A DNA stretch of 32,000 bases from Candidatus Electrothrix sp. GW3-4 (GCF_037902255.1 NZ_CP147990.1:2010001-2042000); one strand, 5' to 3'; shown: positions 5,340 through 29,752, counted from the first letter of the stretch. Program-made: numbers and translations. Notes: generated by a model from the letters alone, not told the origin.

Positions 5340-8300
5340 TTATATGGTATTTGTTTTTGCACAGGTGAAACGAATGACAAACTCTGTCCCAGCTTCATGT
5401 TCCACCTTAATGCTTCCGCCCAGCTCATGGGTAACAATACCTACCACCAGCCGAAGGCCAAGAGAAGAAACATTCTGGAGATCAATCTCCGGGGGTAATC
5501 CGCTTCCGTTGTCGGTAACAGTCAGCTCAATAATATCGGCCTTATCTTCAGGCACGGTCAGACAGATCGATATATTACCACCCTGATCAGCAGAAAAAGC
5601 ATGTTTGAAGGCGTTGGTAATCAACTCGGCAATGACCATGCCCACCGCAATTCCCTGATCCATATTCATGCTTACCTCACACCGCTCCACCTTGAGGACA
5701 ATCCCCCTGCTCCAGGCATCATATGCCTGACTGAGATTTCGGCAAAGTTTGCCGAGATAGGTCTCAAAATCGATACGGGCCAGATCATCAGACTGATACA
5801 GGGCCTCATGGACCAGGGACATGGCTTCAATACGGGTTCGGCAATCATTGAAAATTTTTGTCAAATTCTCATCATCGGTCCGTCTGGTATACATCCGCAA
5901 CATCCCGACAATGACCTGCATATTATTTTTGACCCGATGATGAACCTCGCGCAGCAGGACTTCCTTTTCATTGAGGGCATGGCGAAGGGCCTGCTCTGCA
6001 TTTTTACGTTCCGTAATGTCAACACCGAGTCCACCGACATAGCGCTTGCCTGCCGACGCCCTGAATAAAAATTTATGATTGAGCCACCACACCTCCTTAC
6101 CGTCCTGGTCAACAGTACATTCAACAACTTCAACGGGCTTACCTGCTGTGAGGACCGTCTGGTCATTTTGTTGAGAAACTGTTGCAATCTCAGGTGGCCA
6201 CAGCTCAGAATCCGTCTTATCGAGCCAGTCCTTCTGCTGGACGCTGAAGCGTTTCTCGTAGTTATGACTGATAAAGACATACCGTCCTTCTTCATCTTTG
6301 AGCCAAGCGATGACTGTGCTGTTCTCCAAAAAAGACCGCAGCCGTTCTTCACTGTCTTTTAAGGCATCTTCGACCAGTTTTCGTTCAGTAATATCCTGTA
6401 CCGTTCCGGAAACATGCACAACCTCTCCTTGTTCGTCCCGAATGATCTCTGCAAGTTCCTGGACATATCGCACATCCCCCTGGGGCTGAACAATGCGGTA
6501 CTCAATATTACTGTCCCGCCCCTTGCTCAGCGCCTTTTTCCGCGCCCGCCGGAACTCTTTCCGGTCATCGGAATGGATAGCCTGTTCAAAGACTTGGGGC
6601 GTGACCCTGCAATGCTCTGCATCCTGGCCAAAAATCTTGTGCGCTTCCTCAGACCAGACAAGCCGATTGCTGTCCATATACCAATCCCAGTAGCCCATAT
6701 GGGCCATCTCCTGGGCCTGACGCAACCGTCTCTCGTTCTGCTGCAACAGCAGCACAGCCTCTTTTTGGGCGGTGATATCCTGACCAGTAGAAATCAAACG
6801 GGGAGCCCCCCCGATCTCGACAATAATGCTGCTGTACAGGCAGTGACGTAACTTTTTTTCTTTATTGCGGATAACAACCTCCTGGTTCTGAAGGCATCCA
6901 TCATTTTTGATTATGTCAACCAACCGTTCCCGCTCCTCAGGCACAATCATCCCTATCTCCATCGTTGTCCTGCCGATCAAATCTTCGCGGGAGTATCCGG
7001 CAACATCTATATATGTCTGGTTCACATCCAAAATTTTTCCGGTTTCGATCTCACTGAGAGCCATCATGACCGGTGCGGTATGAAAAACCCTGGAAAATTT
7101 TTCCTCGCTCTGTTTCAGTTCTGCCTCGTTTCGCTTTCGCTCGCTAATATCATCCACCAGGGCAACACAGTAATACAGGGAGTCGTCAGGAGTATAGACC
7201 GCATTTACATAGAGTATTGCGTACAGGATACTGCCGTCTTTGCGGAGGTAACGTTTCTCCACAGTATATCCTCTGATTTCACCGGCCAGCACCCGGTTGA
7301 ACTGTTCCAGATCAGCATCAAGATCGTCTGGACAGGTCAGATCAGACCAGGTTAATTCCGTCAATTCTTCGCGAGAATAACCGAGGAGACGACAAAAAGC
7401 ATCATTGAAATCAAGAAAGCCCTTTTCCGGGGAAGTCATGGCAATGCCGAAAAGTCCTGTATCCATAATTGCCCGAAACCGTTGTTCGTTCTCTCTTAGC
7501 GCTGCTTGGGCCTGCCTGAATCTGCTCACATCCAGGGTGACTCCGATGACCCGGGTGGCCCGGCCGTTACTGTCCCGTTCTGCAGCCTGGCCCAGCCCCT
7601 GGACGTAAATCCATTCCCCGGATTTCGTCCGCATCCGGACCTCAACTTCGTACTGTCCGCTCTCGCCCTCAATAAAATCCGTGTAGGCCTTATTCATGGT
7701 AAAGACATCATCTGGATGAACCCGTTCCATGAGCCAATTCGTGAAGAGATTATACGGGGGCAGTTCTTCCCTGGTGTAGCCAAGTATTCTGGCCCACTGT
7801 TTGCTATGGTAGAGTTCCTGGCCAATGGGCACCTTATGCTCATATATGCCAGCGCCACTGATGGCCAGGGCAGCTGACAGCCGGGATTGGGTCATCTTGA
7901 GGTCGATTTCATTCTGCTTCAGATCAGTGACATCGGCAAAGGTCAGCACCAAGCCGTCTACCCTATTATCCTGGGTCCTGAAGGGCAGGATACGGCGAAT
8001 AAACCACCGTCCTTCATCGGTTTTCACCTCCTTGGCCGAGGGCACCAAAGTATCCATGACCTGGGAGGCATGGCCCTGGAGCTCATCGTCACTAAAGCGC
8101 ATGGCGAGATCGCCGATGGGCCGCCCCACATCAGCAGGGATCAGGTTGAACAGGTGTTTTGCAGCGGGCGTGAAGCGTCTGATCGCCATATTAACATCGA
8201 GAAATACCGTGGCCACATCCGTACTGTTGATCAGATTGGCCATATCGTTATTGGCGTGTTCCAGTTCTCTGACCTTGTCCTGCAGTTCGGCATTGACCGT

Positions 8301-14033: not shown

Positions 14034-14132
14034 AGGGCCCTGAATCTTGGATAGCGTTTGCGCGAACGAGTTATTTTCACAGCATCAGCCCCCTGCTTCA
14101 ACCCCCTGAAACCACAGAACCGGATTCCTTTC

Positions 14133-15701
14133 ATGAAACCTCTTGCACAGCTTTCCAGGCAACTCCCTGATCCTGCTGCTCTTCAGGAGCTTGCAGATGA
14201 ACTGGAAAAAAAATATACTGTTCAGGACACTCCTGCACAGAGCATGACCCTGCGTTTTTACGATAGCTTTGACTGGCGCCTGTATTGCGCGAATCTTCTC
14301 TGCTTTGAACAGGCTGGCAGGCTCTACCTCACCGATCTGATCGGTCGCGAGCTTGTCCCCTCCTTACCAATCTCAGCGATCTCTGGGAAGGCCGTGGGAT
14401 TTTGCCAGCATCTGCCCCAATCTGCCCTGCGACAAAAAATCACCCCTGTCTTGGAGATGCGAACCCTGCTCCTGCAAAGCCATTTTTCCCAAACAACACG
14501 CCAACTCCGCATCCTCAATAAGGATGAGAAGACCGTGGCAACGCTTATCCTGGCTGAGCAGAGCCCAGAAAGTGGAGCAGCCGAGCAACCAATCTGCTCT
14601 GTCCAGCTGCACGAGGTGCGTGGTTATGGCAAATGGTTGCAACGGCTGGAGCAGGACCTTGAAACATTCGGCAACCCTCAACCCTGCACCCGGGAGCAGG
14701 ACCTGAAAGCTGCGCTGGCCGCCAACAAACGGGCCCCCCAGGATTATAGCTCAAAATTCTCAATCGCTCTGCAGCCGGATATGGAAGCCCTGACAGCGGC
14801 AAAGATGATCTATCAAGACCTGTTGAGCACCATGCGGAAAAATGAGCAGGGTATTCTGAATGATCTGGACAGCGAGTTCCTCCACGATTTTCGGGTGGCG
14901 ATCCGCCGAACCCGCTCTGGCCTGGACATGATCAAGAAGGTGCTGGAACCAGAGATCACAGCCCGTTTTAAAAAGGAATTTCGCTCTCTCGGCATGATCA
15001 CCGGCCCGGTTCGCGACCTTGATGTCTATCTTCTTATGGAGGAGGATTATAAGGCCCGCCTGCCGGACCATCTGCAAACCGGTCTTCATTATTTCTTTGC
15101 CGATCTGGCGGCACAGCGTAAAAAGGAACAGAAAAAACTGGTCCAGGCCCTCCGGTCCTCGCAGTACAAAACCATCATCAAGGACTGGAAAAAACACCTC
15201 CACCACAAGAAGGGGTCAGGGGGGAAGCAGAGCGCCACGCCTATCGGCAAGATGGCCAACACCATCATCTCCAAGCGCTTTGCCCGCGTCCTCCGGGATG
15301 GTCAGGCCATTGATGCGGACTCAGCGGATGAGAGCCTGCACCGCCTCCGCATCCAGGGCAAGAAGCTGCGCTACTGCCTGGAGTTTTTCAGCTCCCTCTA
15401 CCCACCCAAGAAGATAAAGTTCCTGGTCAAGCAACTCAAGATGCTGCAAAATAATCTCGGCCTGTTCAATGACCTTTCAGTACAGCAGGACATGCTCAAT
15501 ACCTATCTTGGCGGGCTTAAACCAGGCTCTGGTAAGGCTAAAAAAATGGGGGCCGCCATCGGTGGTCTGCTGACCAACCTCTATCATGAGCAGCAACAGG
15601 TCCGCAGTGAATTTGAGGAGACTTTTCGTCGTTTTTCCTCTAAGGAGAATATCTCCTTGTACGAGGAACTCTTTGGATCAGAGCAGAAGTCAGGCCAATA
15701 A
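14133..15701 (+). CDS. CYTH-like plus CHAD domain protein
   Basis: The C-terminal CHAD helices carry conserved basic histidine motifs (FLHDFRVAIRRTRSGL, LHRLRIQGKKLRYCLEFF). The N-terminal ~200 aa is CYTH-like (TLRFYDSFDWRLY), but I cannot see the EXEXK motif. The listed ORF starts at a TTG (14058); the first ATG is 14133 (MKPLAQL). Confidence 0.85.
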   Translation: MKPLAQLSRQLPDPAALQELADELEKKYTVQDTPAQSMTLRFYDSFDWRLYCANLLCFEQAGRLYLTDLIGRELVPSLPISAISGKAVGFCQHLPQSALRQKITPVLEMRTLLLQSHFSQTTRQLRILNKDEKTVATLILAEQSPESGAAEQPICSVQLHEVRGYGKWLQRLEQDLETFGNPQPCTREQDLKAALAANKRAPQDYSSKFSIALQPDMEALTAAKMIYQDLLSTMRKNEQGILNDLDSEFLHDFRVAIRRTRSGLDMIKKVLEPEITARFKKEFRSLGMITGPVRDLDVYLLMEEDYKARLPDHLQTGLHYFFADLAAQRKKEQKKLVQALRSSQYKTIIKDWKKHLHHKKGSGGKQSATPIGKMANTIISKRFARVLRDGQAIDADSADESLHRLRIQGKKLRYCLEFFSSLYPPKKIKFLVKQLKMLQNNLGLFNDLSVQQDMLNTYLGGLKPGSGKAKKMGAAIGGLLTNLYHEQQQVRSEFEETFRRFSSKENISLYEELFGSEQKSGQ

Positions 15702-17000: not shown

Positions 17001-18218
17001 TCATTCAAAGCCCACACAATTCTCCTGATAGAGGCGCCCGATCAGCTCCAGGGCCTCGTCGCCAAAGTCTTTATGAATCTCTGCCAGGGTCTTCTCGCCA
17101 TTCACGGCCTCCAGCACCGGTTTTGCGGCAAAGGCAACCGGTACAGACCAGTTATAGCGGGTAACCAGATAGCCGAAGGCTTCTTCTCTGATTCGGAAGC
17201 GGGCAACTGGCTTCCAGCTCGGATCCAAGCGCAGAGTCTCCGGCTCTGCCGTGCAAATAGGTCCTGTCATCAAGAGGTCCTGTTTTTCACCCTGTTCCAG
17301 GGCAGCAGAGCGATCTCCTCCCCGGCAGCGAGCAAGCTCAAGGCATTGCAGACAGGCCGCAGCGATCTGCTGTCGATATTGCTGGGCCTGTTCCGATTGC
17401 CAGATCTCTGTCATGGGCTGTTCAAAGATATTGCCGAACACGGTACTGGTCAGATTATCCGGTCGAACAAGGCCTTGCGGTGAGATCGCACAATGTTCGA
17501 TCCCGGCATTGGAGCCCTCAGTGGTATTCGGGGCAAAACATTTGGGGACACAGTTGCCGATGCGGCAGGATACGCCCTGGCTGTGCAGTTCTTCAATCAA
17601 CAGCACAGCTTTCCGGAGCTGCTCTTGAGAAGGTTGATGGGGATTATCTCCACCCAAAAAACGATTAAACACGGCATATTCAGCACCGAGTCCCTGGGAA
17701 AGATGGATGATATCTTCCACCTGTTCACAGCTGTCTTTCGTCAGGATGGTATTGGTGAAGACCTCTATCCCGGCATCTGCGGCGCGTTGGATATTTGTAC
17801 AGGTCTCTGCAAAGGCATTTTTATCCTTAACAAGGCTATTATGGGCAACAGGCGTGTTCCCGTGCAGGCTGATAAGCAGACCCAGGCAGTTTTCCTGTCC
17901 TTGATAGAGGTTGATGATAGATGCAGGATCAGACCAGCGTCCATTGGTAAACAGGACATGGGCGATGCCCAGGGAATCAAGGTGGCGAACGATCCGAGGA
18001 AATTCAGGATGAAGAGTAGGTTCCCCGCCGGTCAGGCGGATCAGTTCGGCATATTTATGGGGATGAGCAGGCGGGGCAATGCGGTCAAACAGGTTTCGCC
18101 AATCGGTCAGGGTCTGTTGGCGTTGAGTTCCCCAGACATTAGCGCAGCCGGTACATGCGTTATTACAGGCATAGGTGAGTTCAACAGCATAGGAGAGAGG
18201 GGCGGAAGGAAAGAGCAT
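17001..18218 (-). CDS. Radical SAM enzyme with Cys-rich SPASM/twitch-like region and fused C-terminal PqqD-like (RRE-type) domain
   Basis: The CX3CX2C motif is at residues 18-25 (YACNNACTGC, nt 18144-18167). A second half holds 7 cysteines (CRIGNCVPKC ... HC ... CLQCLELARC). The last ~70 aa (FRIREEAFGYLVTRYNWSVPVAFAAKPVLEAVNGEKTLAEIHKDFGDEALELIGRLYQENCVGFE) match the PqqD pattern of strand, LN-like segment, then G-x-T-x-x-EI. Confidence 0.8.
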   Translation of the reverse strand: MLFPSAPLSYAVELTYACNNACTGCANVWGTQRQQTLTDWRNLFDRIAPPAHPHKYAELIRLTGGEPTLHPEFPRIVRHLDSLGIAHVLFTNGRWSDPASIINLYQGQENCLGLLISLHGNTPVAHNSLVKDKNAFAETCTNIQRAADAGIEVFTNTILTKDSCEQVEDIIHLSQGLGAEYAVFNRFLGGDNPHQPSQEQLRKAVLLIEELHSQGVSCRIGNCVPKCFAPNTTEGSNAGIEHCAISPQGLVRPDNLTSTVFGNIFEQPMTEIWQSEQAQQYRQQIAAACLQCLELARCRGGDRSAALEQGEKQDLLMTGPICTAEPETLRLDPSWKPVARFRIREEAFGYLVTRYNWSVPVAFAAKPVLEAVNGEKTLAEIHKDFGDEALELIGRLYQENCVGFE

Positions 18219-18221
18219 GGC

Positions 18222-18377
18222 TTAGTTGCTGCCCAGGGCATAGAGGCCCTTTCTTTTCTTCTGCTCCTTCAGCGCAGGTCGTTCCGTTTTATTCAGGACA
18301 ACACGTACGGAGCAGGAGATGGCCTGGTTGCTGTCGTAATAGCTCTTGAGATATTTTTTGCTCTCTGTTTCTTTCAT
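18222..18377 (-). CDS. Small ORF (51 aa) immediately upstream of the radical SAM gene; candidate precursor peptide
   Basis: The ATG is at 18377, with AGGAAG about 9 nt upstream. The peptide is MKETESKKYLKSYYDSNQAISCSVRVVLNKTERPALKEQKKRKGLYALGSN. The TAA stop (18222-18224) sits 3 nt before the rSAM ATG at 18218. I recognise no homology, so whether it is coding at all is uncertain. Confidence 0.35.
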   Translation of the reverse strand: MKETESKKYLKSYYDSNQAISCSVRVVLNKTERPALKEQKKRKGLYALGSN

Positions 18378-18553
18378 ACTGAGGTCTTCCTGCTCGGTCT
18401 TAATGACTGCCCAAGGCAAAAATGTTTTTTTGTTTATGTCTCCATTCCTTTTTCTGCACCTTTTCGCTCTGATCGGAAAATGATACCTTAACCTGATCGC
18501 GATCCTTACCCGGCAGGGAATAAAACGACAGGCAGAATTGAGGAGGTGCTGTT

Positions 18554-21500
18554 TTATCTTTCATATTCCTGTACCAATCTCCAGGTTAAACTCCTCATCC
18601 TGATGAGTTGCAAGATACTTTCAAGTTCCTCCGTTCTCTTTCGCAGATGCCTTCCGTCTTGCCAGATATGCCGTAAAATATCATGGAGGATATCCAGGGA
18701 TGCGCTGTCCGCAATCAACTCTATGCGGCGTCGGAGCACCCGCAGACCTGCTTCAAAACTCAGATCGTTAAAGCCTGCCTTGTAATCACAGGCTTCAACA
18801 TAGCAACGGAACATGGGGAGCAGGTCTTCACGACCGACCGGAGGCTTTCGAGGGATAAAGCTGTAGCTTTCCGAATCTGCTTCATCAGCCTGCTCTTCCA
18901 TTTGAAAACTCCTGCTGAACAGCACATCACCTTGTGTAATCCGGAATCGAGCTGCTACCCAAGGGTACTTATATCCTTCATCTTTTATTTTCCTCTCAAG
19001 ATCCTGCTCATATTTCACAACATCTTTATGAGCATTCCAATCATCATATTCTCCTGAGAAATAGATCGCATTCAGGTAGCTCTGGACTGCATCATCATAT
19101 TTGTCATGATGTTCACTGGCTTCACATACCGCAATGGATTGCTTGAGATATTCAAAGGCCCCAAGGCCGTCCTGATCATTCTTCCAGAAATGTCCGTTCA
19201 TCATCTGCAATTCACCCAGTTGAAAATATGCTTCAGCTGATTGCTGATGATAAAAGCGGATACGTTCTTGCAAAAACTCCTTCTGCTCCTTTTCCTTCAC
19301 TGAATCTAATCGTCCGCTTAACTCCTCCAGAGTTTGTTCAAGCTGCTTTTTACCTTGTTTCAGCAGGGTGAATGCCTTTTCTCGATCCCCCTCAAACTGT
19401 CTGTCAAACCTATCGCGTGCAGACGGCAATTCCTCCCGCAAATAAATTTCCAGCAGAGAGCCATAGCCGCCTTGGCGAAAATAAAATTCACCTTTGACAA
19501 TGTCCGTAAAGCCCTCCAGCCCCTGCTTCAAGATTGGATCAGTTATTTTGACTTGTGCCTCGATATCCTTTCCCTCAATGGCGTCTCGGGCACGTTCATA
19601 ACAAAGCCGGGTATAATGAACATCTCCCAAGAGGCGATATAATCGGCTCTGGCGACTCAGGCGACAGGCAACTTTTTCCTGATATATCTCGCTGCCGGTC
19701 TGTTTAGCCTGAAGCCGATAACCGTCAATCAGGCATTTGTTCAACAAAACCGCATCGCGGTACTTACCGTCATCTTCAGCTTGTTGAATAGCCTGTTTCA
19801 GGCCTTTGATCGTTCCTTGTCTGTCCTCTTCAGTTAGCTGCAACAATTCGATATAGCTGAAGATGATTTTAAAATCAGAAATATCATACTGCCAGTCCTC
19901 AGGATTCTTTTTCAGCCAGGCAAGAATCTCCTCCGCAACCACCCGCTGCTTTTTGATCAGGGTGATTAAACGGTTATAACATACCCGCAACACCAAAAAG
20001 TACCGATCCTTGTTGAATTTCTTTTTATATAATGCCGCAGAAAAATAATGCCTGAACGCCTTATTCAATAGCTTTATCTCTTTGATGCAGTTAGCATCAC
20101 GGGTATTTTTTGCCTGAAGCCGATCCAATGCGCTGTCGAACGCTATATTCCCCAAGGTCAATTCATAACGACCCATGAGATTCGGATAGCGTTCCATTTC
20201 CGACCGTAAATCAACCTCTAATTGTTTCCGGTACTGTTGCTGTTTTTGCTCATTTTCTATTTTTTTCTCGTTTGATAAATTTTCTGCTGCATAATTCCAA
20301 AAGTAATACAAGGCGACCAAACTTTCTAAGGCATCAATATGACTATAGCGAAACTGGCTGATCTCAGCGGATTTCGCAGCCTGAAGAAATGCCTGTTCAG
20401 CTTCCCGCCATTTATCGGCTCTCCATGCTTCAGGCGTCATCATATATAGCTCGCCCAGATTGAAATAGGCATCTGCCAGCTCTTTATGCGAAACAGGATC
20501 TTCAGATTCGCCTTGAAGAATTTTGATGGCTTCCTTTGTATGCTCCACTGCGCTTCTAAGTAGTTCCGCTCGCAAGCTACCCTGTTTGGTAAAGGTATTA
20601 TTAACAGCATAACGCAGCTCTCTTGCCCGGTAATACTCTATCATATAGGCAGACTCTAGAGAGTCATAGGACAGCCAGCAATAATTGCTCTGTAAACGGC
20701 CACCCAGCAGAGGATCCGGTATTTCCCTATAAATTCTTTTCGCTTGTTCCAAATAAGAACGGGCGTCCATACTACGACCGGCGACGGCCAGCACATGGGC
20801 TATTGTATTCAATGATCTGAAGATCTCTTTTTTATTGCGAGGGAGGCTCTCAACAATATTAAATTGCATTTCTGCATATCGTATTGATTCGGAAAACTTC
20901 CCTTTATAACGATACAGCATAGCAAGGTTTCCGTAGGTGTACTGAATACGCTGTTGGAGATTCCTTTTCTTCCTTGTACCCGCATCCAATTCTTTTCCTA
21001 ATAGGTCCAAGAGCCCGTCTAAGCTCTGCTTCATCCAGCCTTCTGCCTCATTAAAATCAGCTTTTCGGTAATACGTATAGCCGATCCAGTTTTCAGCAAG
21101 AAATACCAGGTCTTCTTGCCTCTCATGAGCAATAAAAATCTCTCTCGCCTCCTTCAGAAAACGGATGGCCTTATCAAATTCGTCCAGCCAGAAATAGGCA
21201 ATCCCCTCCCAGAGTTTAAACTTCCCGAAAAGCAAAGAACTTTCCCAGGATGCATCAGCTTGCTGCTGTTCATTTACTGATTTGATGATACCTAAAGCTC
21301 TTGGAATATCTTGTTCATTGCCATCAATATAATACCGAGCATCCCGTAACTCAACTTCGAGTTCAACGAGTAATGAGGGGGTGTATTTATCACAGCAAGA
21401 TACGGTTTCACGGCCGAGAAGGCTAGCATAGGCCCCTCGCCCATCCTCCATTGCCATATCAAATTCATCACAAAACCGTTGTACGCCTTCATCAGCATCT

Positions 21501-23497
21501 GCCATAAAGGTATATTCAATAAGCTCCGGTGTATACACCTCCCGTTTTTCCTGCATGACATCTTGTTTGGCCGCATCAATCAGTATGTCGATGTATTTTT
21601 CCAGCTCGTCTTGATCCAACCTGATGTTCAAGAATGAACAAAACTTTTTCTCTGTAAAAAACAGATTGTTAAAATCAATTACTTTATTCAAAATGCTTTC
21701 GGGGATTTTTTTCCCCCGCAAACGGCTGAAAGACAAGTCTGTCAGCCTGTAATCCGGCGACAGAAATTTATCCTCATAATAACGAACTAATTTTCCTGCG
21801 ATCTCCCTTTGTTGACGTTGATCAGGATCCACCCAGTTTTTCCAATGCGTTTCAAGCAAATCCCGCATCTCATCGTGGAGCAGGATAACATCTCCTTTAC
21901 CTTTATCTTTTTTATGTTTGATAAAAGATAGGGGGCTCAATTCGTTAAGTGTTTTCTGACAATTTCCCAGAGTGTCGTCGGTTAAATACTGCATGATTGC
22001 AGGAGTCATCCGGCGATAGGCCACGGCCATAGGATAAATGAACTTTCTTGCAGCGGGATCATTCCAGCACCATTGAATAACAGCCTTTTCAAAATTTGCT
22101 TTTTTTTCCTCATCGGCAAGCTTATTAAGCTCATCTAACAGTTCCCCCGGTTCGCGATTTCCGCTATTAAACCGATACCAGTCCATAAAGAGCGCTAGAT
22201 AAATCGGACGATAACCGGATAATTCGAAAATTTGATCAAGCTGATTTTCTGTCAGTTGAAGCTCTTCGAGCAGATCATCCAGCGTGTTGATGTTTGCTGT
22301 ATCCTTCAGACATGCCCTTAGGAAATCTGTCGCCTCAGAAGAGTCAAATAGATTAAGAGGAAGCTCGGAACTACCCGCTTTCTTATTAACAAGCGGATAA
22401 CGCCCTGCAATAACAATTCGTGTGTTGTCTGATAACAATCCAGGAAAAAGCTTATCTTCCAGCCAGCTAGAAAAGTCTGTATGGTCTGCCTTCTTTTTCT
22501 CACGATCAACCCGTTGAATTACCTCATATGTATCAAAGAAGAGAACGATTATCCGGCCCTCTTTTTTTGCCTTGTCGGCAAAATGTTTATAGTCTTCTTC
22601 TAAGGCGGTTAATACATTATCTAAGAGATATTGACGCTTACTGCTATCCTTGGTTCGACGATATTCCTTGAGCTGATAAAGAACATTCGAAAACTGATCA
22701 GAGCCTAATTGTTTAATGAGCTGTTTGATAACCCCCGCTTTAGAACGAGTTTCAGTATGATAAAGGTCAATTAGTTCGTCACTGGTTATGATTCTTTCGG
22801 CATATTCAGATTGATGGCATATCTCCTGCATTTGCAACAGAAGCTGCGTCTTACCGACGCCTCCATCACCATTTGTATGAATATCCAAGATAAAAGATCT
22901 GGAATTAAAAAGGAATTCTTCCTTAAATTGTTCTAACTCTTTTTTACGCCCTACAAAAATAGATGATTCTATCGTGGGCCGATTCTGCGTTCCGTCATGA
23001 CCAGCAGACCGTTCCGGCTGAACACTATGAATAGCGAAATTATCCCATAGTTGTTTTTTGATCTGCGCTTCAGTTTCAGTTTCAAACTCCAGTAATTTTC
23101 CGAGTTTTTCCACCAAATCCTTTGGCATCGCAACCTTCAGATCGGAACCCACATATTGAACAGAGAGGACTTTCTCAAAAAACGAATAGTTACTGTTTCC
23201 TACAAGTAAACCATGTAAGTACCTAAAAAGTTTTTTATTAAGGAATTCTCTATCGTTGCTTTGTCGATAGAAGATAATATTTTGGAATTCTTCGATGTTA
23301 CAGAGCCCCTGTCGAGCTGCCCTGATGTTATCCCGCTTGATTTTCTTCTCTTTAATTGCACCAGTAATATTTTGGTATTTTTCATCATCACAATTGAATG
23401 CATTCAGATCCAATTGTAATTCTTCTATCTCACTGTTAAGTTCGCCCAATTCTTTTCCAAGCTGGTCATATTTTTTCTGTAATTCATGAAAAGTCAT
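18554..23497 (-). CDS. Giant STAND-type P-loop NTPase with N-terminal coiled-coil/unknown domain and very long C-terminal TPR array
   Basis: The listed ORF starts at a TTG (23527). The first ATG is 23497 (MTFHELQKKY), with GGAG 7 nt upstream. FVGRKKELEQF precedes Walker A GDGGVGKT (nt 22847-22870). Walker B is RIIVLFFDTYE, the sensor-like strand is RIVIAGRY, and the GxP-like motif is SGYRPIYLAL. Roughly 900 aa of TPR-like repeats follow (for example GNLAMLYRYKGKFSESIRYAEMQ, LADAYFNLGELYMM, AEAYFQLGELQMM). Composition is AT-rich. Confidence 0.85.
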   Translation of the reverse strand: MTFHELQKKYDQLGKELGELNSEIEELQLDLNAFNCDDEKYQNITGAIKEKKIKRDNIRAARQGLCNIEEFQNIIFYRQSNDREFLNKKLFRYLHGLLVGNSNYSFFEKVLSVQYVGSDLKVAMPKDLVEKLGKLLEFETETEAQIKKQLWDNFAIHSVQPERSAGHDGTQNRPTIESSIFVGRKKELEQFKEEFLFNSRSFILDIHTNGDGGVGKTQLLLQMQEICHQSEYAERIITSDELIDLYHTETRSKAGVIKQLIKQLGSDQFSNVLYQLKEYRRTKDSSKRQYLLDNVLTALEEDYKHFADKAKKEGRIIVLFFDTYEVIQRVDREKKKADHTDFSSWLEDKLFPGLLSDNTRIVIAGRYPLVNKKAGSSELPLNLFDSSEATDFLRACLKDTANINTLDDLLEELQLTENQLDQIFELSGYRPIYLALFMDWYRFNSGNREPGELLDELNKLADEEKKANFEKAVIQWCWNDPAARKFIYPMAVAYRRMTPAIMQYLTDDTLGNCQKTLNELSPLSFIKHKKDKGKGDVILLHDEMRDLLETHWKNWVDPDQRQQREIAGKLVRYYEDKFLSPDYRLTDLSFSRLRGKKIPESILNKVIDFNNLFFTEKKFCSFLNIRLDQDELEKYIDILIDAAKQDVMQEKREVYTPELIEYTFMADADEGVQRFCDEFDMAMEDGRGAYASLLGRETVSCCDKYTPSLLVELEVELRDARYYIDGNEQDIPRALGIIKSVNEQQQADASWESSLLFGKFKLWEGIAYFWLDEFDKAIRFLKEAREIFIAHERQEDLVFLAENWIGYTYYRKADFNEAEGWMKQSLDGLLDLLGKELDAGTRKKRNLQQRIQYTYGNLAMLYRYKGKFSESIRYAEMQFNIVESLPRNKKEIFRSLNTIAHVLAVAGRSMDARSYLEQAKRIYREIPDPLLGGRLQSNYCWLSYDSLESAYMIEYYRARELRYAVNNTFTKQGSLRAELLRSAVEHTKEAIKILQGESEDPVSHKELADAYFNLGELYMMTPEAWRADKWREAEQAFLQAAKSAEISQFRYSHIDALESLVALYYFWNYAAENLSNEKKIENEQKQQQYRKQLEVDLRSEMERYPNLMGRYELTLGNIAFDSALDRLQAKNTRDANCIKEIKLLNKAFRHYFSAALYKKKFNKDRYFLVLRVCYNRLITLIKKQRVVAEEILAWLKKNPEDWQYDISDFKIIFSYIELLQLTEEDRQGTIKGLKQAIQQAEDDGKYRDAVLLNKCLIDGYRLQAKQTGSEIYQEKVACRLSRQSRLYRLLGDVHYTRLCYERARDAIEGKDIEAQVKITDPILKQGLEGFTDIVKGEFYFRQGGYGSLLEIYLREELPSARDRFDRQFEGDREKAFTLLKQGKKQLEQTLEELSGRLDSVKEKEQKEFLQERIRFYHQQSAEAYFQLGELQMMNGHFWKNDQDGLGAFEYLKQSIAVCEASEHHDKYDDAVQSYLNAIYFSGEYDDWNAHKDVVKYEQDLERKIKDEGYKYPWVAARFRITQGDVLFSRSFQMEEQADEADSESYSFIPRKPPVGREDLLPMFRCYVEACDYKAGFNDLSFEAGLRVLRRRIELIADSASLDILHDILRHIWQDGRHLRKRTEELESILQLIRMRSLTWRLVQEYER

Positions 23498-23535
23498 GCA
23501 ACTACTCCACGATCTGGTGTTAATCAAGTAAAAAA

Positions 23536-25062
23536 TTATACCGACTCAATAATTTCTAATAATTTTGTAACATCAATCATTAGGCATAATTCTTTATCCC
23601 TCTCCAGAACATTTTTCAATCGGCCAATTTGGTCACGAACCAAATATTCATCTCCAATATATTCTTTAGTAAAATAACTGTTCAGATATTCTTTCAGCTT
23701 CTTCGCGATATTTTGAGTAATATTTTCTACACGTTCTTCTGTCATCAATAACGTCGTATGATACAGCCGTTCAACTATATTCTTGATCTGGCTGGCATCT
23801 CTGGTCTGTTCAATCCAGCGATCATATTGTTCAATCAATGCCCGCTGTATCTCAATAAATTTTTCTTTATGATTAATGCGTAAATCTAAAAGCAATATAT
23901 TCCGAGTAACCTCCTCAAGATCAAAACCGGCACCGAGAGTCCAAGGGGTAAAAATGTGTATCTTGTTTTGAAATTCAGTAATAAGATCATGAAAAAAAGA
24001 AAAAGATTGATCTTTAAAACTACCTGGAAGAAATCGAGATAAAATAAAATGGAAGGTGCTAAATTCAATACGTCGCAAGGGAGCAAGACAAGAAAGAATG
24101 GCCTCCGGTGAAGGATACTTAGAGCTTAATTCTAACTTTTCAAGGACTCGATTTTTAATTACTTTATCAATCAATTCCTGAATACTGCGATTATAATGCT
24201 CGTTAATAATTTCAGCTGTTACTATCTTTCTGAAGCCAGCACTCAAAAAATCAAGAAATGTATAACTACTGAACGGGTGACCTAGTGTTAGCATCCATAA
24301 TTTATTAAGAAGATCACTTTTGTTTTCAGCAGACAAGTGATTTTGAGATAAAAGACGGTCAACAAACTCTTCAGTATCTCGCAAAGATAGTCGCTGCATC
24401 TGATGCCGCTTAACCCTCCTGCGCAAAGTAGGACTTATCCATCCCCATCTCTGCTGACCAGCAAAAATAGCTATAAAATTATTGTTATCAATAAATTTAA
24501 GCAATATTTGTTCCTCAAGACGATGAATAATAGAAGGGCACGCCCGCTCTGTACTATCGAAGCAGATTACAATTTTATACTCCCTTAATAAATCTTGCAA
24601 AATTATCGTGAAGCCATTAAGCAGTTCTTCTTCTTTTCTATCAATAGGTTTCCGGTCTGCAGTTTCTGGGACGTCCCAAAGTTGTCTGTGGTATTTTTGA
24701 AGTTCCTCAATATAACTATTCAACCGCTCATTAAAATTATTGAAATGACTTGATATTTTTTCTTTACCTGAAAAATCATCAACTACTTCTTGCAATATCG
24801 GATAAATCTCCGGTCGATAAAATTGTGGCTCATTTAAATCAATATAGGCAGCTAACCATTTTTTTCCCTTTATGGTTTCAGTAAAAAAGTACTTCAAAAG
24901 CTCCGTTTTACCCTGTCCAGAAATCCCGGTAAATTCCAAGAAATGTTTTTCTTTCTCTTCACCATTAAGAATATTTCCTAATAATTCTTTTTCATCTTTC
25001 CGGTTAACAAACAAATCAGAATCAAATTCGATGTCTCTTTTTATTTTTATTTTCATTTTCAT
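23536..25062 (-). CDS. STAND/AAA-like P-loop NTPase (508 aa), paralogous to the NTPase module of the downstream giant protein; no recognisable sensor repeats
   Basis: FVNRKDEKELL precedes Walker A GISGQGKT. Walker B is KIVICFDSTE, the sensor-like strand is FIAIFAGQQ, and the GxP-like motif is LGHPFSS. The C-terminal half is helical. The AAGGAG RBS is better spaced for the third-codon ATG at 25056. The gene stops 8-38 nt before the next gene. Confidence 0.8.
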   Translation of the reverse strand: MKMKIKIKRDIEFDSDLFVNRKDEKELLGNILNGEEKEKHFLEFTGISGQGKTELLKYFFTETIKGKKWLAAYIDLNEPQFYRPEIYPILQEVVDDFSGKEKISSHFNNFNERLNSYIEELQKYHRQLWDVPETADRKPIDRKEEELLNGFTIILQDLLREYKIVICFDSTERACPSIIHRLEEQILLKFIDNNNFIAIFAGQQRWGWISPTLRRRVKRHQMQRLSLRDTEEFVDRLLSQNHLSAENKSDLLNKLWMLTLGHPFSSYTFLDFLSAGFRKIVTAEIINEHYNRSIQELIDKVIKNRVLEKLELSSKYPSPEAILSCLAPLRRIEFSTFHFILSRFLPGSFKDQSFSFFHDLITEFQNKIHIFTPWTLGAGFDLEEVTRNILLLDLRINHKEKFIEIQRALIEQYDRWIEQTRDASQIKNIVERLYHTTLLMTEERVENITQNIAKKLKEYLNSYFTKEYIGDEYLVRDQIGRLKNVLERDKELCLMIDVTKLLEIIESV

Positions 25063-25116
25063 ATCTCCTTGCTGGACTCTCCTGGAAATTCCTCACTTAT
25101 TTTTGGACAAAAAAAG

Positions 25117-26190
25117 TCACCTCATCCGATTCTGAAAGTGTTCCTTGTCGTCGTAATGTATAAAATAAGAAGAGTCGAAACAAAAATTAATCCTGAATCT
25201 ATCAGTGAAGAACAAAATAAAATCTTCTTGAAATCTTTTAAACCATCCTCTATGCTTGGTTATCACATTCAACTCACTGATACAAATAAATATTCCATTA
25301 TGGTTATTACAAACTTCTTGAATTAAATTATGAACTTTGTAGTGTTGCCCAAAAAAATCATTTAATATTCTCTCTTTCTTATTTACCTCTCTACTATAGG
25401 AATTTTCTAAATATGGAGTAAATATCGGACGTACTTCTTCAGCTTTCTTTTCTCCTGCAAGATTGCAAATTATCGCGAATGCCATCCTGTACACTGCATT
25501 CTCGTAATTTTTAGTTTTTATAACATTTCCGAGCTGTATGATATACAATCCCCTTTTTTGCGGATTTAGTTTTACAGCATTTCCCTCTGAAATATCCTGG
25601 AGAGGTTTCCAAAGATCGGCAATACGATACAGCGGCATTCCAAAAACTGTACCTTCCGCTGGGATTGCCTGAATCTGCAACGCTACAACAGCTTGCAATT
25701 TATCACTGAAAATAGCACTGCCGCTATAACCTCGTTCATCTGCATCTTCACTTCTAAACCTAAAAACACGATGGCAGTTCAACCGTTCGTAATTCCCTAT
25801 AAAATGTCCTTTACAGGCACACATATATTTAAGACTTATTCCAAATCCATAAAGTCGAAATTCACCTAAATTACTTGATGCGGATTCTATTAATTGTATC
25901 GGCAAGAAGCGATATTGCTCCGATTGAAAATCTAATTTTAGCACGGCATAATCAATCCCCATCTCCTTTTGATATCCCCAGCTGACCCTATTTGCAAGGC
26001 AAGGGGCCTCTCCTAAGAATTGGACATAAATTTCTTTCTTAGGTTCTGCCGTCCCCAATAAATGACCTGCTGTCAGCAGATGCCCCTCACTACTCACAAG
26101 CCAAGCAGTACCAACTGGCTCACCCTTATCATTTAAGACAGCACAGGTAGCCTGTTGAATATCATCATCAGATATATTTTGTTTGCCCAT
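25117..26190 (-). CDS. Trypsin-like (S1/Trypsin_2-type) serine protease with an unassigned ~155-aa C-terminal domain
   Basis: The putative triad is H43 (LLTAGHLL), D80 (GIDYAVLKL) and S156 (ERGYSGSAIF), in the order and spacing of chymotrypsin-fold bacterial proteases. No signal peptide is visible, so it is probably cytoplasmic. Residues ~200-357 match nothing I recognise. Confidence 0.8.
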   Translation of the reverse strand: MGKQNISDDDIQQATCAVLNDKGEPVGTAWLVSSEGHLLTAGHLLGTAEPKKEIYVQFLGEAPCLANRVSWGYQKEMGIDYAVLKLDFQSEQYRFLPIQLIESASSNLGEFRLYGFGISLKYMCACKGHFIGNYERLNCHRVFRFRSEDADERGYSGSAIFSDKLQAVVALQIQAIPAEGTVFGMPLYRIADLWKPLQDISEGNAVKLNPQKRGLYIIQLGNVIKTKNYENAVYRMAFAIICNLAGEKKAEEVRPIFTPYLENSYSREVNKKERILNDFFGQHYKVHNLIQEVCNNHNGIFICISELNVITKHRGWFKRFQEDFILFFTDRFRINFCFDSSYFIHYDDKEHFQNRMR

Positions 26191-26225
26191 TGCAAATACT
26201 GCTCTCGTTCTGATTGTTGCTCACT

Positions 26226-26537
26226 TTACCAAATTAATTTTACTTTTAAGACAGAATCCGCTTTTACTCCTATAACCCATACTTTCGTTTGAGCTGAGAA
26301 TCCAAGAGAGAATTCTACTTCCATCTGCTTAACACCGCTTTCTTCACGAAATTTATTTAAGTCATTACCGAGATCTTTAGCCATATTCTTAATGACAGTT
26401 TTTGCCTTTGCATATGCATCCTGAATATCATCTTCAATACCGGTATCGACGGGGACATTTAACCCTTCCAATCTATCATCCATAGCCTGGATCAAAACAT
26501 CAGTCTCTCCAATACGTTCTCGTATGACTTTCATCAT
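26226..26537 (-). CDS. Trypco2-like (trypsin co-occurring domain 2 / CU044_2847-family-like) small protein
   Basis: This 103-aa protein has the C-terminal pattern MEVEFSLGFSAQTKVWVIGVKADSVLKVKLIW. That matches my recollection of the family signature (VEVEFG..L..E.G..I.K......FKVKLTW). It lies directly upstream of a trypsin-like protease gene, the defining context. AGAGGGG RBS is present. Confidence 0.7.
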   Translation of the reverse strand: MMKVIRERIGETDVLIQAMDDRLEGLNVPVDTGIEDDIQDAYAKAKTVIKNMAKDLGNDLNKFREESGVKQMEVEFSLGFSAQTKVWVIGVKADSVLKVKLIW

Positions 26538-26674: not shown

Positions 26675-27028
26675 CTACCCCTCCTCCCCCTGCTCCACCT
26701 TCCTCGCCTGACGCTTCCGCTCACTTGTCCTCGTGCCGCCGATCATATCGTATTCCTCAGAATTGGCCCCGAAAATCCCCTTGACCACCGCCCGCACCTG
26801 CACCATATGATCACTCAGATTCTCTGTCTTATCCCCTTTCCGATCAACCAACCGGGTCCGTTCGACATTAACAGCATCCAGGTCATCAATCACATCCTCC
26901 AGCTCGGTCACCTTTGTTTGCATATCCGCAGCCTTTAGCCCCTCAGGAATACGATCATCGATTTTCTCCAGGGCCTTTTTCATCTCATTGGCCTCCTGCA
27001 ACAACTTGGGTACGCTTTTATTCAACAT
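26675..27028 (-). CDS. Hypothetical coiled-coil protein (117 aa), backbone-like GC
   Basis: A strong AAGGAGG RBS lies 6 nt upstream of the ATG at 27028. The sequence is helical and charged (LQEANEMKKALEKIDDRIPEGLKAADMQTKVTELEDVIDDLD) with a basic tail (GGTRTSERKRQARK). I recognise no family. Confidence 0.6.
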   Translation of the reverse strand: MLNKSVPKLLQEANEMKKALEKIDDRIPEGLKAADMQTKVTELEDVIDDLDAVNVERTRLVDRKGDKTENLSDHMVQVRAVVKGIFGANSEEYDMIGGTRTSERKRQARKVEQGEEG

Positions 27029-27841: not shown

Positions 27842-29431
27842 TCAGTTATGCTCCCTGGTCTTGTGAAAGACGATATCCGGGAAGAGCTCAGCAGTATGGT
27901 TGAGCCGCCATTGCCCGTCCGCCAGAAAGGCCAGATGCCCCTCCGCATCATGGGCCAGATTGCCCTGATTCTTGGCCTCAAAGGTCTTGAGCTTTTTCGC
28001 ATCATCACAGGTCACCCAACGGGCCAGGTTATACTGCACCACTTCGTAAATCGCATCCACATTATACTCGGCCTTGAGCCGGGCCATGGTCACTTCAAAC
28101 TGGAGCACCCCCACTGCGCCGAGGATATAATCACTGCCCATCACCGGACGAAAGAGCTGTACAGCCCCCTCTTCCGCCATCTGTACCAGGCCCTTATGGA
28201 GTTGCTTGGTCTTGAGCGGATTCTTTAACAGGACCCGGCGAAAATGTTCAGGGGCAAAGTTAGGGATACCCGTGAACTTGAGCTGTTCTTTATCGGTAAA
28301 GGTATCACCAATCTTGATGGTGCCGTGGTTATGGATGCCAATGATATCTCCGGGATAGGCCTCATCCACATTGGCCCGGTTCTGGGCCATGAAGACCGTG
28401 GCCTTGCTCAGATTGACCTCCTTACCCAGGCGGTGATGCCTGACCCGCATCCCCCGGGTAAACTTGCCTGAGCAGATCCGGAAAAAGGCGATGCGGTCAC
28501 GATGGGCCGGGTCCATATTGGCCTGGATCTTAAAGGTAAAGCCGCTAAAGGCCTCTTCATGGGGCGCCACTTCCCGGGAGAGGGCAGCGCGGGGGCCAGG
28601 AGGCGGAGAAAGCTCGATAAAATTATCCAGCAGCTCTTTGACGCCAAAGTTATTAATGGCACTGCCAAAGAAGACCGGGGTCTGACCTGCCTTGAGATAC
28701 TCCTCATACTCAAAGGGATTGGCCGCACCATGGAGCAACGCCACATCCTCCCGCAGCTGCTCCGCATCAGGTCCGCCCAGGAGCTCATCTAAGCGGGGAT
28801 CATCCAGGCCCTTGACCGTGATCCGATCCTCTGGACGGGTCTCCTGGCTCGGGGTAAAAAGGCTGAGCTCATTACGATGGAGGTCGTACACCCCCTTGAA
28901 GCCCTTGCCCATGCCAATGGGCCAGGACAGGGGCGCACATTCGATCTGGAGTTTCTCTTCAATATCGGCAAGGATATCTAAGGGGTCCATGCCGTCCCGG
29001 TCCAGTTTATTGATAAAGGTGATGATGGGCGTATTGCGCATCCGGCAGACCTCCATCAGCTTGGTGGTCTGGGCCTCTACGCCCTTGGCTGAATCAATCA
29101 CCATCAGGGCCGAGTCCACAGCCGTAAGGACCCGGTAGGTATCTTCGGAGAAATCCTGATGGCCTGGGGTATCCAGGAGGTTGATCTCAAAATCCCGGTA
29201 ATTAAACTTCATCACCGAGGTGGTCACTGAGATACCGCGCTCCTGCTCAATGGACATCCAATCGCTGGTGGCATGGTTGGCGGTCTTGCGGGATTTCACC
29301 GCGCCCGCCATCTTGATCGCCCCGCCAAAGAGCAGGAGTTTTTCCGTCAGGGTGGTCTTGCCCGCATCCGGATGACTGATAATGCCAAAGGTGCGCCGTT
29401 TTTCTATTTCTCTTTTCAGCTTACTGCTCAC
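27842..29431 (-). CDS. prfC: Peptide chain release factor 3 (GTPase)
   Basis: [29 protein letters not shown] (G1), DTPGHQDF (G3) and NKLD (G4) are present, with full-length similarity to RF3. The listed ORF begins at a TTG (29485, 547 aa). An in-frame GTG at 29431, preceded by TAAGGT, gives 529 aa, the usual RF3 length. Confidence 0.95.
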
Positions 29432-29752
29432 AAAGGATACCTTATCGGCTTGACCGATGGTTAGGATTATGGGTACTTTTTTCAAGAGCGTTTTTTTCTC
29501 TGTTCTCTCCCTGTTTTCTCTCTGCTCAACAGGACCTGAACCTTATCTTCATCAACGCAGCAGAGCAAACACTGTCCTGCCTGTCCTGCGTAACAACGAC
29601 AGGGGGAACATCCGCTTTGATTCGCTTTGCATTCTTTGGCAGGCAAAATACCGTCTTTTGCTCTTTTATGCAAGAATCGTCAGCAGCAAAGAGGGATTCC
29701 TTGTTCACTTCCCTCCTTATGATCTCCCTGCTCGCAAGGACAAAAAAACAAC

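Follow-up and report, generated by a model that had tools for sequence, protein, structure and literature searches.

Small proteins of the Trypco1 and Trypco2 families owe their definition to vWA-MoxR ternary systems, in which they stand beside trypsin-like peptidases (Kaur et al. 2020, PMC7159879). Recently, Pepco, a name given to Trypco1/2, was reported to be a death effector, a pre-assembled β-barrel activated by a partner protease, the protein tested being a Trypco2 (Evans et al. 2025, bioRxiv 10.1101/2025.11.14.688446). In that study SsPepco formed 9-10-mer β-barrels resistant to sodium dodecyl sulfate, which became toxic once the trypsin-like protease of Avs4 removed a tail after Ile97; deletion of SsPepco abolished toxicity, truncated Pepco alone killed cells, and EACC1 was likewise found to be a protease-activated pore. 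In actinobacteria, moreover, a coupling of AP-ATPase-TPR proteins with FxSxx peptides and radical S-adenosylmethionine (SAM) enzymes carrying a SPASM domain has been noted (Kaur et al. 2020, PMC7159879), the FxSxx-COOH peptide-processing system being credited there to Haft and Basu 2011. Here we describe a locus in a 32,000-nucleotide stretch of the chromosome of Candidatus Electrothrix sp. GW3-4 (NZ_CP147990.1:2010001-2042000, below called the window), a multicellular, filamentous cable bacterium. A Trypco1 gene and a protease gene form one operon with two genes for NTPases of the STAND class, two peptide genes and a radical SAM/SPASM gene. We consider it probable, by a modest measure, that the operon encodes a modular programmed-cell-death (abortive-infection or conflict) system resembling nucleotide-binding leucine-rich repeat receptors (NLRs), in which a core of paired nucleotide-binding oligomerization domains (NODs), peptide and radical SAM enzyme is joined to a Trypco1/protease output.

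The sequence-only reading of the window had placed four minus-strand genes with gaps of 8-54 nt in a single operon. The open reading frames (ORFs) were recovered as described, the gaps between the longest ORFs of Trypco1, protease, NTPaseS and NTPaseL being 35, 54 and 8 nt. The single operon stands as well, but it is longer than had been supposed and runs on past 18554, 1.5 kb further downstream, through two peptide genes and the radical SAM/SPASM gene. It comprises seven genes, perhaps eight:

26226..26537, minus strand: Trypco1 (Pepco-class) protein, 103 aa; predicted to be a protease substrate and a latent effector that forms membrane pores
25117..26190, minus strand: trypsin-fold (S1C/HtrA-like) serine protease, cytoplasmic, 357 aa; residues 1-200 form the protease, residues ~200-357 a separate C-terminal domain
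23536..25062, minus strand: NTPaseS, a NOD-only STAND NTPase lacking a repeat sensor, 508 aa; predicted helper or effector-carrying partner
18554..23527, minus strand: NTPaseL, a STAND NTPase with an array containing tetratricopeptide repeats (TPRs), 1657 aa from TTG; predicted sensor
18400..18564, minus strand: pep1, a basic peptide of 54 aa, MKDKTAPPQFCLSFYSLPGKDRDQVKVSFSDQSEKVQKKEWRHKQKNIFALGSH; predicted radical SAM/SPASM substrate and NTPaseL partner
18222..18377, minus strand: pep2, a pep1 paralogue of 51 aa, MKETESKKYLKSYYDSNQAISCSVRVVLNKTERPALKEQKKRKGLYALGSN
17001..18218, minus strand: radical SAM/SPASM enzyme, 405 aa; pep1 and pep2 are its predicted substrates for maturation
26675..27028, minus strand: orf117, 117 aa, hydrophilic and probably coiled-coil, 137 nt upstream of Trypco1

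The first seven genes form an unbroken run on a single strand, their junctions being either gaps of 3-54 nt or, in one case, an overlap: the stop of NTPaseL overlaps the start of pep1 by 11 nt, pep1 and pep2 are 22 nt apart, and pep2 is separated from the radical SAM gene by 3 nt. Two start codons are likelier to lie inside the longest ORFs. For NTPaseS this is the ATG at 25056, which is preceded by a Shine-Dalgarno-like sequence and was chosen by the gene caller on identical Logan contigs. For NTPaseL it is the ATG at 23497 (1647 aa), again with a Shine-Dalgarno-like sequence, selected by the gene caller and in agreement with the orthologue of E. aarhusensis.

The motifs attributed to the small NTPase, GISGQGKT, ICFDSTE and GHPF, hold on inspection of the family. 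As Walker A, Walker B and GHP motifs they fall on invariant columns in 30 homologues, the invariant residues being Gly49, Gly51, Lys52, Asp169 and Gly261-His262-Pro263. The AlphaFold2 (AF2) model of NTPaseS, with a mean predicted local distance difference test (pLDDT) score of 90.6, displays the NOD fold of STAND proteins, and the best Foldseek matches are SSO1545, MalT, Cdc6, CED-4, Avs3, NRC3/NRC4 and Apaf-1 (probability 1.0, TM-score ~0.4). The protein stays below the cut-offs of the named Pfam families nSTAND3 (18.2 bits, cut-off 27.2) and AAA_16 (18.4 bits, cut-off 32.6), and no sequence relative was found in the PDB. NTPaseL consists of an N-terminal domain of ~185 aa, a NOD and a long TPR-containing C-terminal array. 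Its P-loop (Walker A) GDGGVGKT, with Lys226 in the numbering of the 1657-aa ORF, and the Walker B motif FDTYE lie on invariant columns in 14 homologues. An hhalign comparison of its NOD with the NTPaseS family gave a probability of 98.2% (E 4e-14) over 371 columns, which marks the NOD as a clear paralogue of NTPaseS. P-loop, STAND class and TPRs of the large enzyme are as described earlier. Of the supposed ~900-aa TPR array, however, Pfam recognises only a part: TPR_12 scores 40.4 bits against a cut-off of 30.1, and the other TPR matches span residues 773-1447. Searches of the PDB with NTPaseL and with NOD profiles of both NTPases returned nothing significant, and Pfam detected no helix-turn-helix (HTH) or other DNA-binding domain in either protein.

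Homologues of NTPaseS amount to 43 proteins of ~505 aa. Anchored on these, about 20 related loci (designated by L and a number) were fetched from Electrothrix spp., other Desulfobacterales, Vecturithrix/UASB270, Moduliflexus, one metagenome-assembled genome (MAG) each of Gemmatimonadota and Spirochaetales, and metagenomes, a metagenome scan with the NTPaseS profile yielding three loci only. In 15 of 19 related loci NTPaseS and NTPaseL are adjacent or nearly so, and the pairwise identities of the two proteins correlate (r = 0.72). A peptide of the pep1/pep2 family directly follows 16 of the 18 complete NTPaseL genes, usually with a start/stop overlap, which in the other phyla is of the ATGA type. 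A radical SAM orthologue stands immediately after NTPaseL and peptide in 11 loci, the window included, and ~5 kb upstream in L006. Judged from these sequences, the conserved core is composed of NTPaseS, the paralogous TPR-STAND NTPaseL, one or more peptides and the radical SAM/SPASM enzyme, and it extends across several phyla. The weight of this argument lies in the conservation between phyla; adjacency within Electrothrix is weak evidence, because the locus is partly syntenic within the genus.

The peptides of the family, of which the loci contain 20, share an N-terminal MK..., a [Y/F/L]x[L/I]xx[F/Y]Y segment, a central β-like [V/I/L][K/R][V/I/L] followed by a basic run, and a C-terminal motif, [F/Y/H][A/M]LxS[H/N/S](G), with ends such as ...FALGSH, ...YALGSN, ...FALSSSG and ...FMLESHG. 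While the C-terminus is constant, the body of the peptide evolves fast. Substitutions between orthologues favour third codon positions; pep2, which shares the C-terminal motif, has orthologues in L003, L013, L021 and L022. A hidden Markov model (HMM) was built from 16 members; applied to L022 and L023, which had been held out, it recovered four more peptides (E 4e-24 to 1e-6), and all four lie directly 3' of an NTPaseL gene. Two loci, L004 (12182-20455, paralogues directly adjacent) and L023 (3467-16120), encode two NTPaseL paralogues, and there every paralogue is accompanied by a peptide of its own, both of those in L023 being among the held-out cases. Neither Pfam nor NCBIfam holds a family that matches the peptides. 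Both pep1 and pep2 are hydrophilic and basic and lack a signal sequence.

The protein encoded next to them contains the Pfam domains Radical_SAM and SPASM but reaches the cut-off of none of the NCBIfam radical SAM families, the best being ahbD, PqqE and mycofactocin (69-80 bits). Its orthologues are 52-84% identical across phyla and by far more conserved than the NTPases. They form a tight clade: in a search of 1.8 billion proteins the nearest 50%-identity representative scored 577 bits, after which scores dropped to ~320 bits. Small conserved ORFs with a core motif, placed just upstream of a gene for a SPASM radical SAM enzyme, correspond to the layout of a cassette for peptides that ribosomes make and that are modified after translation (RiPPs). 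SPASM radical SAM enzymes cross-link aromatic(i)-Cβ(i+2) motifs of small peptides (PMC11002830), and the F/Y/H-x-L motif resembles such sites; this likeness may serve as a lead only, because the aromatic residue is absent from one peptide of the family. In L017 (10001-12202) a protein of 733 aa, P0043, unites a distant NTPaseS relative (E 2e-12) with a radical SAM/SPASM domain and adjoins Band_7 and TPR genes. The fusion is independent support for a functional link between NTPase and radical SAM enzyme. UASB270 and Vecturithrix each harbour the system twice, at separate places and with a radical SAM gene in just one of the copies, and in these two genomes the enzyme may be shared in trans between the copies.

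In contrast to the core, the genes upstream of NTPaseS vary. The sequence-only reading had treated its four genes as a unit that should co-occur, but Trypco1 and protease form a swappable cassette found in three of the ~20 related loci, while the NTPases are almost always paired with each other, together with peptides and radical SAM enzyme. The upstream slot is occupied as follows:

Window: Trypco1 and trypsin protease
L022: Trypco1 and trypsin protease
L016: Trypco1, with the protease fused to NTPaseS (P0004, 709 aa)
L013 (NTPaseS 60% identical): EACC1-like protein and caspase
L006, L007, L019, L023: TIR proteins
L004: TIR, DUF4062 and caspase
L011: metallophosphoesterase
E. aarhusensis, E. 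scaldis: proteins that belong to no known family

A conserved sensor core combined with exchangeable TIR, caspase, protease or pore cassettes is the signature of defence and conflict systems.

In the window, the slot begins with the 103-aa protein, which had been called Trypco2-like. It matches Pfam Trypco1 (PF19493) with an E-value of 2.5e-9 (38.0 bits, cut-off 24.6; profile positions 7-96 of 98) and NCBIfam CU044_2847 (NF041216) with 29.7 bits (cut-off 23), whereas no match to Trypco2 (PF19631) was obtained at E <= 0.1. The characterised SsPepco, in contrast, matches Trypco2 at E 5e-18. Members of the Trypco1 clade end in LKVKL[I/T]W followed by a tail of 0-8 aa, and the window copy is tail-less, stopping with ...KLIW at Trp103. 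In each of the three loci with the cassette the protease occurs together with Trypco1, and the Trypco1 homologues in L016 and L022 adjoin both the protease and the small NTPase.

For the protease, the description as a cytoplasmic trypsin-fold enzyme with a His43/Asp80/Ser156 triad is well borne out. Pfam Trypsin_2 scores 35.8 bits (cut-off 27.6); His43 is invariant among 20 homologues, and Asp80 and Ser156 (the latter within GYSG) are at least 90% conserved. The AF2 model has a pLDDT of ~90 over residues 10-200, and the Foldseek matches of this part are the protease domains of HtrA, DegS and MucD (TM-score ~0.7 on the target); a sequence search of the PDB gave nothing significant. No signal peptide or hydrophobic segment was detected in the operon proteins, the maximum Kyte-Doolittle mean over 19 residues being <=1.25, and as neither a signal peptide nor a transmembrane segment occurs in the operon, the idea of a housekeeping periplasmic protease was dropped. 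The C-terminal domain is modelled with a pLDDT of 30-60 only, and its sole detected relative is a 463-aa protein in the same slot upstream of NTPaseS in E. aarhusensis (E 2e-9). In P0004 of L016 the protease domain (Trypsin_2) is fused directly to NTPaseS, with Trypco1 just upstream, which ties the cassette to NTPaseS and places the protease on this NTPase. The protease of L022 (7626-9878) is 214 aa long only, and a DUF6399 gene on the opposite strand occupies the position where the C-terminal domain would be expected; this may reflect a truncating insertion or a naturally short protease.

Most of the loci outside Electrothrix carry a further system-specific domain of ~200 aa, either within the proteins of the upstream slot or beside them. 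It is a standalone protein in some loci and is fused elsewhere to TIR, to caspase or to TIR, DUF4062 and caspase. In E. scaldis it is borderline (E 0.01), and in the window protease it is undetectable. The domain looks like the effector-docking adaptor of the system. A second small ORF, called mid, of ~200 aa as well, is conserved between the genes of the small and the large NTPase in non-Electrothrix loci and has no counterpart in the window. Neither the mid ORF nor the adaptor matched a Pfam or NCBIfam family. The possibility that the N-terminal 185 aa of NTPaseL represent a fused copy of the mid ORF was rejected, no similarity being found. Several loci, in addition, contain RelA/SpoT-like genes of ~362 aa beside the system, which may be additional effector modules of the alarmone or pyrophosphokinase type. 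In L007, L019 and L006 one of these directly follows a standalone adaptor of 235 aa. The positions of these features are:

Adaptor domain, gene just upstream of the small NTPase: L008 9098-9823; L009 9195-9920; L024 7068-7796; L007 16516-17223; L019 16799-17506
Adaptor domain, likewise in the gene just upstream, fused copies: L004 7396-9969 (residues 660-861); L013 3608-6145 (residues 405-577)
Mid ORF between the two NTPase genes: L004 11517-12182; L005 11534-12121; L006 11538-12215; L011 3646-4224; L019 11537-12190
RelA/SpoT-like genes: L007 17230-18318; L019 17513-18601; L023 17368-18456; L006 13921-15003 and 16136-17215

Taken together, the arrangement can be accommodated by a model of two layers, in which NTPaseL, NTPaseS, the peptides and the radical SAM enzyme would constitute a conserved signalling core and the trypsin-like protease with Trypco1 an exchangeable output cassette. 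All functions, those of this locus as well as those of the core in general, are ones that we infer. The radical SAM/SPASM enzyme would cross-link or otherwise modify pep1 and pep2 at the conserved C-terminal motif, and the modified peptide, as ligand or licensing factor, might then bind to NTPaseL at its TPR array and set the threshold between off and on. A signal derived from an invader or from damage would change this state; NTPaseL would exchange nucleotide and could nucleate a hetero-oligomer with NTPaseS, a helper that would carry or recruit the effector, in the manner of NAIP-NLRC4 or of plant sensor/helper NLR pairs, and this oligomer would cluster and activate the protease. Sensing by NTPaseL, recruitment of NTPaseS and activation of the protease by clustering make up the most economical model because P0004 puts the protease on NTPaseS. 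Cleavage of Trypco1 would finally convert a latent oligomer into a membrane pore, so that one cell of the filament is sacrificed, a step from protease to pore for which experimental proof exists only in the case of a Trypco2 protein and a protease fused to Avs4. The statement that Trypco proteins had seen no experimental characterisation is outdated by that work on Trypco2 (Evans et al. 2025, bioRxiv 10.1101/2025.11.14.688446). By analogy with these Pepco results, Trypco1 is more likely to be the killer and the protease the transducer, and the roles proposed before, with the protease as effector and the Trypco protein as adaptor or regulator, are probably reversed. As for the peptide, its one-to-one, translationally coupled pairing with NTPaseL and the dedicated SPASM enzyme, together with the lack of a transporter, leader peptidase or signal sequence, suggest that the modified product could be a partner of the TPR sensor (ligand, licence or guardee) rather than a product for export.

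Several observations weigh against this reading. Trypco1 and Trypco2 are not demonstrably homologous: profile-to-sequence comparison lent no support to their relationship, the hhalign alignment of the window Trypco1 clade with SsPepco covering six columns only, at an 'EVEF' strand. Moreover, since the window Trypco1 is tail-less, the published cleavage mechanism may not be assumed, and the removal of a 20-aa tail after Ile97, as in SsPepco, is not transferable as it stands. The C-terminal domain of the protease was considered as a copy of the ~200-aa adaptor, but hmmsearch gave no match and hhalign a probability of 0.2%. The aromatic residue of the C-terminal motif is missing from the peptide of L020; the radical SAM gene is absent within the fetched flank in four NTPaseL loci; and the loci examined yielded no transporter, no leader peptidase and no RiPP recognition element. 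The role of the peptide as TPR ligand is pure inference. Finally, no defence-island neighbours were found around the locus, and tblastn with NTPaseS detected no copy in plasmid and phage collections.

It is rather unlikely that the TPR-STAND protein senses the invader and the protease itself is the terminal effector, degrading host or phage proteins, with Trypco1 as adaptor or regulator and the second NTPase as an accessory. Such a role would be in line with the intact catalytic triad, with the cytoplasmic location and with the missing cleavable tail of the window Trypco1, and a caspase-like defence protease lacking a dedicated effector has been reported (Evans et al., bioRxiv 10.1101/2025.11.14.688446). 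On the other hand, toxicity was lost upon deletion of SsPepco and truncated Pepco sufficed to kill, Trypco1 is found strictly beside the protease wherever the cassette occurs, and L013 swaps in another pair of protease and small pore-former, the caspase with its EACC1-like protein. The core could instead be mainly a RiPP pathway, in which the peptide is an intercellular signal or toxin, the STAND proteins act as regulators or scaffolds (compare MalT and LAL-type proteins) and the upstream effectors are unrelated or form a kin-discrimination module. Precursor peptides directly upstream of a SPASM radical SAM gene are the canonical RiPP arrangement, a processed peptide serving as toxin or amplifying signal was suggested by Kaur et al. 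2020 (PMC7159879), and MalT is among the structural neighbours of NTPaseS. We regard this as unlikely all the same, given that neither NTPase has an HTH or DNA-binding domain, that the examined loci showed neither a transporter nor a leader peptidase nor an immunity gene, and that the peptides are hydrophilic, basic and free of signal sequences. Furthermore, the coupling of the peptide start to the NTPaseL stop, with one peptide per paralogue, suggests a stoichiometric partner and not a product, and the upstream slot consistently holds immune-type effectors, several of them fused to the system-specific domain or to NTPaseS.

The tight genomic pairing of NTPaseL and peptide fits equally well with a guard mechanism, in which the modified peptide is a bait or guardee that holds NTPaseL off until an invader protease or a peptide-binding inhibitor destroys or sequesters it. 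Plant NLR pairs offer an established case of guard and decoy logic, and the fast evolution of the peptide body next to a constant C-terminus would suit it. This mechanism is a sub-variant of the two-layer model, the present data do not separate guardee from ligand, and in the specific form given here we hold it to be improbable. Very improbable, by comparison, is an assignment of the radical SAM protein as a viperin-like nucleotide-modifying antiviral enzyme or as a housekeeping neighbour, the small ORFs then being unexpressed. Weak PADLOC pVip matches to the radical SAM core (E 5e-13, residues 13-171) might be cited in its favour, as might the guanine-plus-cytosine (GC) content of the gene, 53.6%, which fits the host and not the low-GC NTPases. 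Yet the pVip match covers the generic radical SAM core only and a SPASM domain is present, the adjacency of NTPase and radical SAM genes is kept across phyla, and the peptide ORFs are conserved in frame, show substitutions biased towards the third codon position and were recovered by the HMM in held-out loci.

With respect to its surroundings, the operon is embedded in ordinary chromosomal genes, with prfC on one side and SpoIIAA-like, ParA-like, CHAD, GGDEF and CheB/CheR-PAS kinase genes on the other. GC content is 34-37% over Trypco1, protease and NTPaseS and 42.5% over NTPaseL; the window as a whole has ~48%, while prfC and the radical SAM gene have ~53-55%. Promoter and terminator scans gave background levels only, except for a terminator-like hairpin (minus strand, 27696-27672) located after prfC and upstream of orf117. 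The latter, preceded by a good ribosome-binding site (AAGGAGG), matched no Pfam or NCBIfam family. E. scaldis has a strong orthologue of 118 aa at L021 8511-8867 (E 1e-63), two genes upstream of the small NTPase; the position is equivalent, although the remaining neighbours there differ. orf117 may be an eighth component of the operon; its membership is uncertain. Two ORFs of 547 aa that bracket the region, at 14058-15701 (plus strand) and 27842-29485 (minus strand), resembled insertion-sequence copies and suggested a composite transposon; this candidate was discarded, as they encode an unrelated CHAD-domain protein and release factor RF3. Neither long inverted repeats nor a tRNA gene were found in the window. 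Further away, at 5340-10448 (minus strand), a CheB-CheR-multi-PAS histidine kinase of 1702 aa is encoded, with a 21-nt periodic repeat (8280-8447) in a coiled-coil region. In E. scaldis a similar gene stands directly against the radical SAM gene, so that the locus is partly syntenic within Electrothrix.

Comparison with known systems places the output cassette next to the Pepco-protease modules, as exemplified by SsPepco and SsAvs4 of Streptomyces subrutilus (Evans et al. 2025). In both cases a small Trypco-class gene stands immediately upstream of a trypsin-like protease, the protease is linked with a STAND NTPase whose sensor consists of helical repeats, and the cassette is exchangeable; here the small protein is encoded 35 nt from the protease, and the same pairing recurs in L016 and L022. 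SsPepco, however, is a Trypco2 protein of 117 aa with a 20-aa tail after Ile97, whereas the window protein is a tail-less Trypco1 of 103 aa, in which the conserved Ile with a cleavable, charged, Pro-rich tail is not found. Furthermore, SsAvs4 unites protease, NOD and sensor in one polypeptide, while in the window they are divided among three proteins (protease, NOD-only NTPaseS and NOD-TPR NTPaseL), to which the peptides and the radical SAM/SPASM enzyme are added. If the window Trypco1 is a Pepco without C-terminal tail, it would test the generality of the published activation mechanism. The statement that Kaur and colleagues had linked Trypco domains and trypsin-like proteases in predicted conflict systems proved broadly right. 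The locus is not a vWA-MoxR ternary system, the setting in which Trypco1/2 were defined, because no vWA-MoxR or VMAP genes occur among the Pfam matches of the scanned window ORFs of at least 110 aa.

The logic of a STAND protein joined to an effector is shared with Avs1-5 and Lamassu. The protease domain matches the PADLOC model of protease-type LmuA (E 4e-10, residues 8-194), but no LmuB/SMC-like gene was found in the operon, in disagreement with a Lamassu system. In PADLOC-DB v2, NTPaseL has no match and NTPaseS only PDC-M01B (E 0.014), their orthologues in L019 none; nothing was returned for the peptides, orf117 or the adaptor, and for the radical SAM protein only viperin matches to the generic core. 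As the PADLOC matches are limited to the protease domain and the generic radical SAM core, the system is neither Avs1-5 nor Lamassu nor a PADLOC v2 candidate, and the earlier proposal of a conflict or defence system unlike the named ones is supported in outline.

For the core, the closest analogue is the FxSxx-COOH system, in which a peptide with a C-terminal motif, a radical SAM/SPASM enzyme and a TPR STAND protein are coupled in predicted conflict systems of multicellular bacteria. The two differ in the peptide motif, which is [F/Y/H][A/M]LxS[H/N/S](G) and not FxSxx, in the second, NOD-only paralogous NTPase added here, and in distribution, the FxSxx-COOH system being actinobacterial and the window-type core occurring in Desulfobulbales, Modulibacteria, Gemmatimonadota and Spirochaetales. 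FxsB was not among the best 25 NCBIfam matches of the radical SAM protein, and no zincin/HEXXH metallopeptidase was present among the Pfam-scanned neighbours. Triceptide-type RiPPs (PMC11002830) also have a small precursor directly upstream of a SPASM radical SAM gene, and the aromatic-x-aliphatic motif of the present peptides (F/Y/H-A/M-L) resembles their cross-link sites; they differ in that the window-type loci lack genes for export and leader removal and have an immune-like, not a biosynthetic, context. Full-text literature searches revealed no paper describing a paired STAND, peptide and SPASM system, or such a system in cable bacteria. The core therefore appears undescribed, although every part of the system is of a known type, namely STAND/NLR-like sensors, protease-activated pores and SPASM maturases. 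Should the TPR sensor have the modified peptide as its ligand or guardee, RiPP chemistry would be tied to innate-immune sensing and an unnamed radical SAM/SPASM clade would gain a function. The concentration of the system in filamentous multicellular bacteria (cable bacteria, Vecturithrix, Moduliflexus) bears, in addition, on the sacrifice of single cells in multicellular prokaryotes.

The pairing of the two NTPases, finally, recalls the sensor/helper NLRs, NAIP-NLRC4 and the plant NLRs with their NRC partners. Common to all are two paralogous NODs, one of which carries a repeat sensor while the other lacks one and is linked to the effector, here by fusion in relatives; the likeness is one of logic only, and the bacterial NODs are not orthologous to the NACHT and NB-ARC pairs. 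It is a tentative and rather doubtful further step to see in the system an undescribed class of bacterial NLR-like receptor, a sensor/helper STAND pair that drives interchangeable death cassettes (Trypco1/trypsin, EACC1/caspase, TIR and others) and whose sensor is licensed, guarded or tuned by a translationally coupled ribosomal peptide of its own, cross-linked by a dedicated radical SAM/SPASM enzyme. If true, RiPP chemistry would for the first time be linked to NLR-type sensing, and the sensor/helper NLR pairs would have a counterpart in bacteria; should the two NODs act in this way, bacteria would share the division of labour of NAIP-NLRC4 and of the plant NRC network.

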